This document shows, one piece after another, positions 39,619 to 43,317 of a stretch of DNA of 63,660 bases. The position numbers and the translations under genes are program-made. Every line of letters starts with the position of its first letter. Within the stretch, counting starts at the first letter, position 1. The notes below the pieces were generated by a model. It had not been told where the DNA came from. It was given only the letters and a program-made list of their open reading frames with translations, and made no database searches. The stretch spans positions 1 to 63,660 of the forward strand of contig VGSJ01000006.1 of the NCBI GenBank assembly GCA_016875015.1, in the 5' to 3' direction. Source of the stretch: Deltaproteobacteria bacterium (GTDB lineage: Bacteria > Desulfobacterota > Desulfobaccia > Desulfobaccales > 0-14-0-80-60-11).

Positions 39619-40701
39619 ATGACGACCTATTATGAAATCCTGGAGGTTTCGCGGGAAGCAATCTTGGAGGAGATCAGAACCGCGTATCGGCGGTTGGCCC
39701 TCAAGTATCACCCGGATAGGAACCCCGGGGATAAGGTGGCGGAAGATCGATTCAGACAGATTTCCGAAGCTTACCAGGTACTGGCCGACCTGGAAAAGCG
39801 CCAGCTTTACGACCTCTACGGTGATGCCGGGCTGGTGGGCCTGGACGTAAGCGGCTTCAGCGGCTTTGAGGATATTTTCAGCTCGTTCGGGGAGGTCTTC
39901 GAAGATTTCTTCAGTTTCGGACGCTCCCGGAACGGGCCGGATCGGCCCCAGCCCGGCGCGGACCTGAGACAGCCGGTGGTGCTGACCCTGGAGGAAGCCG
40001 CGCGGGGATTGGACACCAGCCTGACCGTGGAACGCCGGGTTAACTGCCCGCAATGTGGCGGGAGCATTGCTGAGCCCGGCCGCCCGCGCCAGACTTGTTC
40101 ACGCTGCCAGGGTAAGGGACAGGTCAGTCAGTCCCAGGGGCTCCTGAAAATCTTCAACACCTGTCCGGATTGCCAGGGGGCCGGCGCCAGAATCACTTCT
40201 CCCTGCTCCGTCTGCCAGGGCGCCGGGGTCATCAAGGAAAAAAAGCAGATACAGGTGCGCATCCCGCCGGGGGTGGATACGGGCGCCCGCCTGCGCCTCC
40301 GGGGAGAAGGGGAAGCCGGGACCTACGGGGCGCCGCCGGGGGACCTCTACCTGGAAGTCTGCGTCGCCCATCATCCCACCTTCACCCGCAAGCACCAAGA
40401 TCTCTATTACCGCGCCCAAATCTCTTTCGTGGAGGCCGCGCTGGGGACGAAAGTGGAGGTTCCCACCCTGACGGCTTCAACCTGCCTGGTCATTCCCCCC
40501 GGTACCCAGCCCGGGGCCACCCTGCGGATTCCCGGCCTGGGTTTGCCCGGCCTGCGGGGCAAATCCTTGGGCGACCTGGTGGTGGTCGTGGACCTCCAAA
40601 CCCCCACCCAGCTCTCCGAGCAGCAGAAGCAACTCCTCCAGGAGTTTCTCAGACTGAAGGATACCGTGGGATTGGATGGGTTCACAGGGATGGAAGCCTG
40701 A
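39619..40701 (+). CDS. dnaJ: DnaJ-family chaperone
   Basis: J domain with HPD, four CxxCxGxG-type motifs (first degenerate) and C-terminal IPPGVDTG/GDLY/IPPGTQPG. Confidence 0.88.
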   Translation: MTTYYEILEVSREAILEEIRTAYRRLALKYHPDRNPGDKVAEDRFRQISEAYQVLADLEKRQLYDLYGDAGLVGLDVSGFSGFEDIFSSFGEVFEDFFSFGRSRNGPDRPQPGADLRQPVVLTLEEAARGLDTSLTVERRVNCPQCGGSIAEPGRPRQTCSRCQGKGQVSQSQGLLKIFNTCPDCQGAGARITSPCSVCQGAGVIKEKKQIQVRIPPGVDTGARLRLRGEGEAGTYGAPPGDLYLEVCVAHHPTFTRKHQDLYYRAQISFVEAALGTKVEVPTLTASTCLVIPPGTQPGATLRIPGLGLPGLRGKSLGDLVVVVDLQTPTQLSEQQKQLLQEFLRLKDTVGLDGFTGMEA

Positions 40702-40918
40702 AGGGGATTAGCCGGACCTGGCCGCCGCTCCCAACCCAAAGAAGTTAACCGGGTTAGCGCGCCGCTCACCGGCCGAGCCATGTGCCGATCAATGGGTGCT
40801 GTCCTAATTTGATTTTGGATTTTTGCAAGCGATTGCAAAGTTTGGATAAATTGATCTGAGAGTGGATAGGAGCAAAATGACATTTTCGTTCAAAGACTGT
40901 CATCCTCACCAAACGCCA

Positions 40919-40947
40919 TTGACAATGGACTTTGGACAGAATATAGT
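40919..40947 (+). promoter_or_regulatory. Putative sigma70 promoter P1 of the NYN islet
   Basis: TTGACA-17 nt-TATAGT; the -35 box lies in the palindrome CCATTG-A-CAATGG. Confidence 0.6.
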
Positions 40948-41013
40948 CTTTTTGGAAAAAAGAGGTATCTATATTTTTTTTTATGTTTTCTATAGCTTTT
41001 CCCGATTATTATC

Positions 41014-41042
41014 TTGACACGGTCAATCTGACCCACTACCAT
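41014..41042 (+). promoter_or_regulatory. Putative sigma70 promoter P2 of the NYN islet
   Basis: TTGACA-17 nt-TACCAT with overlapping inverted repeats TTGAC-N3-GTCAA and GGTCA-N3-TGACC. Confidence 0.65.
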
Positions 41043-41049
41043 ATAGTCA

Positions 41050-41162
41050 TTGAGACCCATCGACGGAACCCATCATCTTTTTTGGATTTGGATGTGGATT
41101 AGCTTCTGTCGATAATTGAGCCCCCAGGGAGTGATCCATTTGGACACTCCCTGTTTTGTTTT
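41050..41162 (+). ncRNA. Candidate structured leader/small RNA upstream of the NYN nuclease gene
   Basis: Two units, each TTGAGNCCC followed by a stem: ATCGACGGAA/TTCTGTCGAT (41059-41113) and CAGGGAGTG/CACTCCCTG (41125-41153), then TTTTGTTTT. Confidence 0.5.
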
Positions 41163-41179
41163 GGAAAGGTAGAGACGGA

Positions 41180-41821
41180 ATGAACCGTATAAGGATATTT
41201 GTAGATTACTGGAATTTTCAGTTGACTATGAATAAACGCGAAGCCTCAGAAAGGGGCAAAATCGACTATCGTTTTGAGGTTGATTGGCTTGGCTTAGGCC
41301 CTTGGCTTGCCCGAAAAGCCTGTGAGCGAATACAAATTACCGATTATTCGTTTGATGGAATCAATATTTACACTTCCTATAATCCAACCACTCAAGAGGG
41401 AAAAAAATTTAATCAATGGGCCAAAAATATACTCAGTAAAGGAACTGGGGTTAGCGTAGAATGCATTGAGAGGAAGCCCAAAAATTATCCAGAATGCCCA
41501 ATTTGTCATCGTGAAATTAGAAATTGCCCTCATGGTGATTGCGGTGCAGAGATGAACCGAACTATAGAAAAAGGGGTAGATACCTTAATTGCAACCGATA
41601 TGATCCGGTTGGCTTGGGAGGATGCTTACGATTTTGCTGTATTGTCCACAATGGACCGCGATTTAATCCCAGCCGTTAAGTTTTTGAAACAAAAAGGAAG
41701 AAAGATAATTCACGCAGGCTTTCCGCCCCTAGGAACTGATTTAGCCGCAGCTTGTTGGGCTTCTTTCGATGTCTATCGCTCACGGAAAGAAATAAATAGA
41801 CCTCCAAAAAAGAAGACATAG
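41180..41821 (+). CDS. NYN-domain (PIN-fold, LabA/DUF88-like) protein with a Zn-ribbon-like insertion
   Basis: IFVDYWNF, EKGVDTLIATDM, LSTMDRDLIPAV and LAAAC; insertion CPIC..CPHGDC; AT-rich codons. Confidence 0.9.
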   Translation: MNRIRIFVDYWNFQLTMNKREASERGKIDYRFEVDWLGLGPWLARKACERIQITDYSFDGINIYTSYNPTTQEGKKFNQWAKNILSKGTGVSVECIERKPKNYPECPICHREIRNCPHGDCGAEMNRTIEKGVDTLIATDMIRLAWEDAYDFAVLSTMDRDLIPAVKFLKQKGRKIIHAGFPPLGTDLAAACWASFDVYRSRKEINRPPKKKT

Positions 41822-42003
41822 GCTTAATTCAACTTCCCCACACTTTATGATCTGGTCAATGAGAAAACCTGACTTCCGGCCAGTTATCTGATATCATCCG
41901 GCTGACGAGAGAAATCCCCTGGAAGTTTAAACGGCACCAGGCGCATGATCAACTGCCGTTTCGGGGCCGGAACCGCCCCCATCCTGCATAAGTTCGCCTT
42001 ATT

Positions 42004-43317
42004 ATGATGAAAATACTATTAATCCAAGCTTCCGGCTACCGGGAAAACGGCCGCCTGGACCGGCGAAAGAACCGCTGGCTGCTGGGGATGACCCTGCCGT
42101 ATGTGGCGGCTTTGACCCCCGGCGATATTCGGGTGGAGATCAAGGACGATATGCTGGAGGAGATCACCTTCCGGGAAGACTGCGACCTGGTGGGCCTCTC
42201 CTTCATGTCCCACCAGGCCCCCCGGGCCTTTCACCTGGCCGCGGGTTTCCGCAACCGGGGCATTCCCGTGGTGATGGGCGGTTTTCACGCCACTCTGGCC
42301 CCGGAAGAATGCCAGGCGCATGCCGATGCCCTGGTGCTGGGGGAGGCCGAGGAGGCCTGGCCCAGGCTCCTCCGGGATTTCCAGGCCGGGCGGCTCCAGC
42401 CCCGCTATCAGGCGGAGAAACTTTCGGACCTGAAAAACCTGCCGGTGCCCCGCTATGACCTGCTGGATCTCAAGCGTTACAAGGTCTGGAACATCCCTTC
42501 CCAGACTACCCGGGGGTGTCCCTATAATTGCAGCTTTTGTGAAGTCACTCAGGTCTATGGGGGCAAGTTCCGGCACCGCCCCGTGGACGAAGTGATCCAC
42601 GAAATTAAGGAGATTCGGCGGTTAACCGACAGCGGTTTTATCTACTTCGTGGACGACAACTTCGTGGCCAACCGCGGCCACGCCATGGAGATTATGGAGC
42701 GCCTCATCCCCCTCAAGCTGAATTACGCCTGCCTGGCCACGGCCAACGTCGGGGACGACCCGCAGTTGCTGGACCTCCTGGCCCGCAGCGGCTGCCGCCA
42801 CGTGAACATCGGCATGGAGTCCATCAGCCCGGAAAGTCTCCGGTCCATCAACAAAAAACAGAATAAGACTACGGATTATGAACGTCAGTTTAAAGGCCTG
42901 CGGGACCGGGGCGTCGGCTTTTCGGTGAACGTCATGTTCGGGCTTGACGGCGACCGGCCGGAGATCTTCGGGGCCACGGTGGATTTCCTCAATCGCGTCA
43001 AGGCGCCGGCCGCGTTCATGTTCATCCTGGCCCCCCGCCCCGGCACCAAGGTGCAGAAGCAACTGCTCCAGGCTGGGCGGATTTTTGACCACGACTGGAG
43101 CCATTACAGCGGCTTTCAGGTGGTTTACCACCCCAAACACATGTCGGTGGGGCAACTGGAGGAGGGCTACTGGCGCGCCAACCGGAAGTTCTATTCGCCC
43201 CTGTCCATGCTGAAGCGCTTCCACCGGGCCCCCTATGACCTCAACATGCTGATTTTCAACCTCTATTTCGCCTGGGCGGTGCGCCGCCGCTTTCAACCCC
43301 TGAATTATTTTTTTTGA
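42004..43317 (+). CDS. B12-binding domain radical SAM protein
   Basis: LPYVAALTP, DLVGLS, VVMGGFHAT, GEAE, TTRGCPYNCSFC and FVDDNF. Confidence 0.9.
   Translation: MMKILLIQASGYRENGRLDRRKNRWLLGMTLPYVAALTPGDIRVEIKDDMLEEITFREDCDLVGLSFMSHQAPRAFHLAAGFRNRGIPVVMGGFHATLAPEECQAHADALVLGEAEEAWPRLLRDFQAGRLQPRYQAEKLSDLKNLPVPRYDLLDLKRYKVWNIPSQTTRGCPYNCSFCEVTQVYGGKFRHRPVDEVIHEIKEIRRLTDSGFIYFVDDNFVANRGHAMEIMERLIPLKLNYACLATANVGDDPQLLDLLARSGCRHVNIGMESISPESLRSINKKQNKTTDYERQFKGLRDRGVGFSVNVMFGLDGDRPEIFGATVDFLNRVKAPAAFMFILAPRPGTKVQKQLLQAGRIFDHDWSHYSGFQVVYHPKHMSVGQLEEGYWRANRKFYSPLSMLKRFHRAPYDLNMLIFNLYFAWAVRRRFQPLNYFF

Follow-up and report, generated by a model that had tools for sequence, protein, structure and literature searches.

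Type III toxin–antitoxin loci comprise one promoter, a small non-coding RNA (ncRNA), a Rho-independent terminator, and an endoribonuclease gene, and only three protein families, all with ToxN-like toxins, are recognized in reviews (PMC5086642). A recent addition of type III-like kind is the AbiF–RCd22 pair from Clostridioides difficile, where AbiF is neutralized in cis as well as in trans by RCd22, an ncRNA with two motifs, as stated in the available part of its description (10.1101/2025.04.15.648962). Here, we analyze a candidate cassette of related layout, composed of a small RNA gene and a gene of an NYN-domain ribonuclease, from a 63,660-nt stretch of contig VGSJ01000006.1 of a Deltaproteobacteria bacterium (assembly GCA_016875015.1); the whole stretch is further called the window. 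An earlier sequence-only reading had placed two promoters, a two-unit RNA, and an NYN open reading frame (ORF) here, and scans and the computed fold recovered all of them, as follows.

40919..40947, + strand: upstream promoter-like site, TTGACA-17-TATAGT, 11 out of 12 matches
41014..41042, + strand: small RNA promoter, sigma70-like, TTGACA-17-TACCAT, 10 out of 12 matches
41049..41162, + strand: small RNA gene of about 112 nt, by fold and covariance model (83.5 bits, E 9e-16)
41049–41058, + strand: 5′ single strand of the RNA, AUUGAGACCC
41059–41113, + strand: long hairpin P1, by computed fold
41114–41124, + strand: linker between P1 and P2, AAUUGAGCCCC
41125–41153, + strand: hairpin P2, predicted terminator stem, 9-bp perfect stem with a 3-bp inner extension
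41154–41162, + strand: U-run, TTTTGTTTT
41180..41821, + strand: gene of an NYN-domain ribonuclease of 213 aa; a Cys4 zinc-ribbon-like insert lies at residues ~106–121

The order promoter–RNA–terminator–nuclease, likened in that reading to type III systems, agrees with the order given for them in the accessible text of PMC5086642; it was found in the window and for 67 out of 75 RNAs adjoining NYN genes in the loci studied below, and not in eight loci with a divergent or convergent RNA. Similarly to ToxIN, CptIN, and TenpIN as characterized in the same text, the cassette has no protein antitoxin, is small and mobile, and occurs both on plasmids and on chromosomes (PMC5086642). However, its nuclease, of NYN (PIN-like) fold and bearing a zinc-ribbon-like insert, does not resemble ToxN, CptN, or TenpN (the Pfam scan yielded NYN only), its RNA consists of two dissimilar hairpin units sharing only the motif AUU-N4-CCC, as opposed to a tandem array of identical repeats, one of the conserved units doubles as its terminator hairpin, and its RNA may be divergent or convergent relative to the gene. 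Given the different toxin fold and an RNA without a tandem array, the cassette, judging by these features, falls outside the ToxIN, CptIN, and TenpIN families. By analogy, and as far as the available description extends, its closest functional analogue is AbiF with RCd22, where a nuclease-type Abi toxin also stands behind a structured two-motif ncRNA, and RCd22 binds the toxin directly (10.1101/2025.04.15.648962). The proteins are different: AbiF belongs to the Abi_2/AbiD/F family, whereas the Pfam scan of the cassette protein yielded NYN only.

The small RNA family

The scan of one genome per species produced 117 confirmed NYN loci; the best 80 of the 117 were kept and, together with the window, form the 81 sources considered here. 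In the upstream regions that we read, the same element was seen in distant phyla; 28 sources (the window and 27 loci) matched a regular expression for it, in three orientations, and an alignment of 27 copies was used to build the covariance model R1. According to RNAalifold, this seed alignment contains two helices, with compensatory changes in 13 out of 17 pairs. R1 applied to the window and 80 loci yielded 77 matches (E ≤ 0.011), and a match adjoins the NYN gene in 75 out of 81 sources, the RNA and the gene being found together in Thermodesulfobacteriota, Acidobacteriota, Planctomycetota, Chloroflexota, Gemmatimonadota, and Proteobacteria. A lack of covarying structure upstream of homologs would, among other things, have refuted the sequence-only reading; with this covarying two-hairpin RNA present beside 75 of 81 genes, the reading is not refuted on this point.

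In the alignment of 71 matches with E ≤ 1e-4, all 17 modeled pairs changed on both sides, 93.8% of cells are paired, compared to 38–48% with partners slid by one to three columns, and none of 500 shuffles equaled the observed covariation values. This alignment was fitted to R1 and therefore favors the structure; the unfitted seed alignment gives the same pattern. In the six sources lacking an R1 match (L053, L058, L068, L071, L072, L075) we see by eye a variant of the same layout. When the filters were switched off, weak R1 matches appeared at the expected place in five of these sources (12.1–13.6 bits, E 0.36–0.76), and L072 gave none even then.

The family consensus consists of cAUUnaagCCCA, P1, UnAUUnnnnCCC, P2 (CAGGGg...cCCCUG), and uAUUnUUU. 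The repetition of UUGAGNCCC, first noticed in the window, is a family-wide feature, as AUU-N4-CCC precedes each hairpin throughout the family, and AUU recurs 3′ of P2. In the single-stranded segments and at the base of P2, not only pairing but also sequence is conserved. The P1 tip differs between copies in both length and sequence, and minimal RNAs of 74–79 nt occur. In one locus out of 81, L016, the unit is duplicated in tandem: at 2830–2990, a three-unit variant has unit 1 (AUUGAAxCCCA and hairpin) repeated before a diverged terminator hairpin.

A promoter-like site with at least nine out of 12 matches was identified for 59 of the 77 R1 matches, and in 61 of the 77 the −10 box ends 5–7 nt before model position 1. 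Of the two promoters proposed for the window, that at 41014–41042 is of a type general to the family, whereas the site at 40919–40947 is, in the loci compared for it, shared with only a few close relatives (it aligns with the cassette L017 of the congeneric genome G010 and, in part, with L003). The orientation of the 75 adjacent RNAs is upstream on the same strand in 67 cases, divergent upstream on the opposite strand in three (L008, L015, L028), and convergent downstream on the opposite strand in five (L020, L023, L026, L027, L054), all according to R1, and the RNAs in other orientations are among the best-scoring ones (76–92 bits). The term "leader," used in the sequence-only reading, is too narrow for the family. 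On the evidence of genome arrangement, the RNA is a separate gene, not merely a leader, because it is divergent or convergent in eight genomic loci, two plasmids, and one viral contig, and has its own promoter. L060 and L070 contain one extra RNA copy each; in L060, promoter and RNA occur twice (940–1090 and 2810–2960), about 1.9 kb apart, around a gene of a RES-domain toxin, and the NYN gene follows the second RNA copy only.

Judging by the alignments and scans, this RNA is a conserved gene family outside Rfam 15. The Rfam scan of window positions 40600–42100 (E ≤ 10) showed no family at the RNA, the sole match being BaMV_CRE with 13.5 bits, the scan of six other loci (E ≤ 1) showed no family at the RNA positions, and ARAGORN detected neither a tRNA nor a tmRNA. 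An abiF motif family is included in Rfam; given no Rfam family in the window and these six loci and no Abi_2 Pfam match, the cassette was assigned neither to the abiF-motif RNAs nor to Abi_2. A published description of this RNA was not found in the literature searched on NYN/DUF88 with RNA motifs, toxins, and type III toxin–antitoxin systems. The family is defined well enough for searching (model R1, alignment A5).

The RNA in the window

The window RNA consists of two units, ATTGAGACCC with a hairpin and ATTGAGCCCC with a hairpin and a T-run, where ATTGAGACCC (41049–41058) and ATTGAGCCCC (41115–41124) form a direct repeat, identical at nine out of 10 positions and 66 nt apart. Of the repeated units claimed earlier, the 10-nt repeat stands, and a tandem array of identical repeats is not what was observed. 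The fold of 41045–41185 has −44.3 kcal/mol (z = −2.35), with three out of 200 shuffles as stable. The assignment of hairpin 41125–41153 with the T-run as a terminator is read from the sequence and the computed fold; a simple terminator scan did not list this hairpin, whose stem has one bulged base. The promoter scan of 40600–42100 revealed five promoter-like sites, compared to 2.2 ± 1.3 in shuffles, and none between 41043 and 41180. The single-sequence statistics are modest, and the comparative evidence is decisive: the RNA is more than chance, because the same RNA with compensatory changes adjoins the homologous gene in unrelated genomes. As the promoter lies at a fixed distance across the family, the transcription start is predicted near 41049.

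In two DNA runs with close strain variants, the differences within the RNA are confined to 41067–41103 or one base of the U-run, and 41049–41066 and 41104–41153 show none. The sole report of Tandem Repeats Finder in the RNA is TTTGGA ×3.3 in the P1 loop. This microsatellite lies in the apical loop at 41081–41100, and the strain variants in the two runs include small deletions at 41081–41093, and so the P1 loop length appears to vary by slippage. In a metatranscriptome run (Logan contigs), one 257-nt contig covers a part of the NYN coding region (41454–41703) and none covers the RNA; such contigs cannot show small RNAs and may come from DNA, so that they are uninformative about expression.

Occurrence of the RNA and the gene without each other

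For the reverse test, the RNA consensus pattern was matched against metagenome contigs, yielding 39 contigs, 33 of which were confirmed by R1 (≥36 bits), the remaining six being chance matches. A full-length NYN gene lies directly 3′ of 21 out of 33 true RNAs. Only NYN fragments follow four (L114, L116, L117, L136), four are at contig ends with no space for the gene, and four, representing two distinct loci, have no NYN gene within a flank of at least 700 nt: L120, and L121, L142, L148, the latter three being one locus that keeps the RNA, the ribosome-binding site, and the ATG. Thus, eight out of 29 evaluable RNAs are without an intact NYN gene. Five NYN genes of the genome set appear disrupted, by a frameshift in L048, L070, and L079 and by truncation in L054 and L080 (assembly errors are possible), and their RNAs still score 39–92 bits. 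An NYN locus without an RNA-like element was not encountered among 81 genomic, five plasmid, and two viral loci. Survival of the RNA after loss of the nuclease, but not the reverse, is the behavior a toxin and its antidote would show; this asymmetry is only suggestive, as every search favors the element used as its query.

The NYN protein

The window ORF matches the Pfam family NYN (PF01936) with 38 bits (cut-off 24.2) over residues 3–192. No match in PDB was obtained by sequence profile at E ≤ 0.01. The AlphaFold2 model of the protein has pLDDT 93, and the best Foldseek matches are VPA0982 (2qip) and the NYN domain of MARF1, both with probability 1.00; the PIN-like α/β fold and the conserved acidic residues place the protein among the NYN domains. 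Residues D9, N12, D134, D140, D159, and D161, as well as four cysteines, are invariant in 26 aligned sequences, and the invariant aspartates, given their position in the motifs, probably form the catalytic site. Relatives of the protein comprise 625 database clusters at E ≤ 0.001 from several phyla, with typically ~60% identity. The start codon lies 17 nt past the U-run, therefore leaving no room for a promoter of the NYN gene itself.

Among described NYN proteins, the LabA/DUF88-type protein VPA0982 (2qip), MARF1, and the NYN protein of Bacteroides fragilis have the same fold and pattern of acidic motifs as the cassette protein, whereas a cognate small RNA is not reported for them in the accessible descriptions. 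The B. fragilis protein, associated with CRISPR, is a non-specific Mn-dependent endonuclease of single-stranded RNA, according to the available part of its description (10.1101/2024.04.08.588522), and by analogy an unrestrained nuclease of this kind is plausibly harmful. HEC-09 is an NYN defense candidate, for which no protection against the phages tested is stated in the available text (10.1101/2024.01.29.577857). A single NYN-domain protein like that of the cassette, HEC-09 comes from a defense context (PADLOC), but it has another N-terminal domain, and the available text does not mention an RNA partner (10.1101/2024.01.29.577857). The PADLOC match to HEC-09 covers residues 114–186 of the window protein (E 1.5e-10) and only profile positions 89–160 of 203.

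The inserted cassette in the window and its neighbors

The AT-rich islet claimed in the sequence-only reading is seen in the composition scan, where 40800–41900 has GC 0.33–0.44 and the flanks 0.6–0.7. Alignment to empty sites in congeners (L100 and L094), where the DnaJ and radical-SAM genes abut with ~20 nt in place of the cassette, sets the insertion edges at ~40790–41863.

40790..41863, no strand: inserted cassette of ~1.07 kb, AT-rich, containing only promoters, the small RNA gene, and the NYN gene
40789–40796 and 41856–41863: imperfect 8-nt direct repeat TCAATGGG/TCAATGAG at both insertion junctions, by comparison with the empty sites in G012 and G010
40801..40839, + strand: left-edge motif of ~39 nt with a 7-nt inverted repeat, TTTGCAA (40822–40828), gcga, TTGCAAA (40833–40839)

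The junction repeat TCAATGGG/TCAATGAG could represent a target duplication or else a recombination core; the cassette itself contains no recombinase gene. The left-edge motif, also present in G010/L017, L003, and an unrelated islet of G013, is possibly an operator or a recombination site; its copy in G013 (L108, ~1564–1602) adjoins a different gene, coding for a 260-aa LabA-like protein. The 250 nt 5′ of the RNA are ~85% identical to those of the congener cassette G010/L017, and the NYN proteins are only 53% identical. The small ORFs of the islet were dismissed as genes: that at 40862–41017 (+) has no Pfam match, and its in-frame ATG, the codon of the sixth residue, is ATA in the 85%-identical G010 copy. 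One copy of the RNA and one NYN gene of the cassette type were found in the genome of the window. The genomic comparison indicates that the islet is a self-contained two-gene cassette, horizontally mobile: it is missing at the DnaJ/radical-SAM junction of congeners, close NYN homologs are present in two out of 40 relatives (G024, with two copies, and G010), and the RNA was detected in none of 150 other genomes of the phylum (with stricter filters and 25 candidates scored per genome), so that its distribution is patchy.

No conserved protein partner was detected by clustering 1511 ORFs (≥100 aa) of the 81 sources, apart from NYN and antisense shadows; the next largest flanking family occurs in seven loci at varying positions. 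Pfam scans covered 138 out of 144 listed flanking ORFs (L062, L069, and L076, being duplicates, and two window neighbors, scanned together with the window, were dropped), and the matches are diverse and mostly housekeeping (ThrRS, SecA, FtsK, RecA, TIM, trigger factor); a few transposases, one RES toxin, and one DNA methylase were also among them. By both methods, the absence of an adjacent protein antitoxin, claimed for the window, extends to the homologous loci, none being conserved nearby.

The tblastn search against 72,556 plasmids yielded six records, five of them with a full-length NYN homolog (37–42% identity) on plasmids of 6.3–12.4 kb from Novacetimonas, Aeromonas, Paracoccus, Pararoseomonas, and Cobetia; cultured hosts include Cobetia amphilecti, Novacetimonas hansenii, and Paracoccus seriniphilus. 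R1 identifies the RNA beside the NYN gene in four out of five (E < 0.001), on the same strand in L103 and L107, and divergent in L104 and L105, where it has 74 nt and starts ~25 nt from the NYN start codon; for the Paracoccus locus, the score at the expected position is only 8.1 bits. The Novacetimonas plasmid comprises five genes altogether. The 8,550-bp Cobetia record L105 (NZ_CP136696.1) repeats one set of five genes every 4,275 bp; therefore, the 4.3-kb unit consists of Rep, three Mob genes, and NYN, and the whole record resembles a 4.3-kb plasmid dimerized head to tail or duplicated in assembly. The phage genome collection yielded no match to the NYN protein. Two contigs of the viral collection have an NYN homolog, both with the RNA, and in one a phage-type integrase is 1 kb away.

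Proposed mechanism and alternative explanations

We infer, with confidence about evenly balanced, that the cassette is a type III-like module of an RNA antitoxin and an NYN toxin with predicted toxicity, RNA binding, and RNA cleavage. Sequence and comparison show a strong sigma70 promoter that starts the ~112-nt RNA with its two units, each a single-stranded AUU-N4-CCC segment and a hairpin. P2 with the U-run is an intrinsic terminator 17 nt 5′ of the NYN start, so that the nuclease would be made by read-through only and, therefore, the RNA should outnumber the protein, both as expected from the layout. The RNA would be the cognate partner of the nuclease, bound directly and possibly first cut by it in the single-stranded AUU/CCC segments, and the bound RNA would keep an otherwise harmful single-stranded RNA endonuclease inactive. 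Upon loss of the cassette or of its transcription (plasmid loss, phage host shut-off), the RNA would decay, and the freed nuclease would cut cellular or phage RNA. The outcome would be a toxin–antitoxin or abortive-infection module, with an NYN nuclease in place of a ToxN-type one.

Several observations weigh against such a module. The RNA lacks the identical repeats of a tandem array, the only duplicated unit being that of L016 (one out of 81), and the RNA folds were computed as nested, whereas the solved type III antitoxins are pseudoknots according to the accessible text of PMC5086642. The neighbors are mostly housekeeping genes rather than defense islands, ~60% identity across phyla is unusually high conservation for a toxin, and HEC-09, the only tested NYN defense candidate in the available text, which the protein matches over 72 out of 203 profile positions, was unprotective (10.1101/2024.01.29.577857). 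Finally, the one-sided loss is partly built in by selection with an intact query, and some frameshifts may be assembly errors.

Some of these observations would fit a ribonucleoprotein that is not a toxin, with the RNA as a stable scaffold, a specificity factor, or a dedicated substrate, and the complex active in RNA processing or surveillance. Y RNA with Ro/Rsr is a comparable ribonucleoprotein. The strict co-occurrence of the RNA with the gene, the RNA being a separate gene, the high conservation of the protein across phyla, the housekeeping neighbors, and the conserved single-stranded segments and P2 base, which suit a specific protein contact of any kind, all agree with this explanation. 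We nevertheless consider it somewhat unlikely, as the cassette is patchy and mobile and is the sole accessory gene set on the 4.3-kb plasmid unit, which is more typical of selfish or defense cassettes, the terminator between the RNA and the gene would enforce an RNA excess, which fits an inhibitor, and the RNAs outlast NYN loss, no NYN gene having been found without an RNA-like element. If, on the other hand, the RNA were purely a cis-acting autoregulatory leader, i.e., the 5′ untranslated region of the NYN mRNA, bound or cut by the protein or with its terminator modulated by it, and with no role in trans, one would expect what is seen in most loci: 67 out of 75 RNAs are upstream on the same strand, ending 11–107 nt before the first aligned residue, the window terminator ends 17 nt before the start codon, and all 25 metagenome loci with an NYN match have the RNA-then-gene order. 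The divergent or convergent RNAs of eight genomic loci, two plasmids, and one viral contig, high-scoring and with their own promoter and terminator, and the intact RNAs remaining where the NYN gene is deleted or degraded make this quite unlikely; the leader explanation is compatible with a mixed cis-and-trans mode, as described for RCd22 in the accessible text (10.1101/2025.04.15.648962).

It is highly improbable that the RNA is an antisense regulator, pairing with the NYN mRNA near the ribosome-binding site and blocking translation in a type I-like manner. On the Aeromonas and Cobetia plasmids, the divergent RNA starts ~25 nt from the NYN start, and an NYN transcript beginning farther upstream would be antisense to it. 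However, in nine loci with the RNA in trans the duplex energies are no better than those of shuffled sequences (z from −1.3 to +1.1, with approximate start codons), the conserved parts of the RNA are constant across loci while the mRNA leaders differ, and the convergent RNAs do not overlap the gene, the gaps being 23–35 nt. Duplex-energy values of some cis loci were rejected as artefacts, since approximate start codons overlap the terminator there.

Other NYN subfamilies and biological implications

PF01936 matches were found in 38 out of 41 genomes searched, mostly of the core LabA-like type. The genome of the window has a second NYN gene of this type (~273–310 aa, G000:C69:4443–4904), outside the window. 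In five core LabA-like loci, we saw no such upstream RNA by eye. As a control, R1 was applied to eight loci with other NYN paralogs in related genomes and produced no significant match (best 13.8 bits); the weak matches adjoin the paralog NYN genes. By eye and folding, five out of seven accessory NYN loci, from at least three subfamilies, have their own RNA of 68–84 nt directly upstream, as follows.

L088, 1100–1172, + strand: accessory NYN RNA
L092, 1997–2064, − strand: accessory NYN RNA
L161, 1720–1803, − strand: accessory NYN RNA
L089, 2006–2074, − strand: accessory NYN RNA
L090, 1059–1128, + strand: accessory NYN RNA

These RNAs feature a sigma70-like promoter, a C-rich single-stranded 5′ segment, GC-rich hairpins, and a U-run (fold z from −2.5 to −7.9), and those of L088 and L092 again carry CCCC-CAGGG...CCCUG. 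By eye, L087, L151, L150, and L152 have no such RNA. It is conceivable, albeit unlikely, that cassettes of an NYN gene and a small RNA constitute a broad class of nucleases gated by RNA that has so far not been described.

Should the role of the RNA go beyond plugging the active site, the complex could represent a new kind of immune or surveillance effector that depends on RNA; e.g., the RNA might be a sensor displaced by the RNA or protein of an invader, or a specificity element of the nuclease. As the cassette is carried on plasmids of cultured hosts, the toxin–antitoxin hypothesis is directly testable. If it is true, an NYN nuclease checked by a dedicated structured RNA would extend the known toxin folds and RNA families by one each, explain the sole accessory gene of some very small plasmids, and provide a function for the widespread "NYN/LabA/DUF88 domain-containing" proteins (625 clusters; 117 loci in the species genomes scanned).

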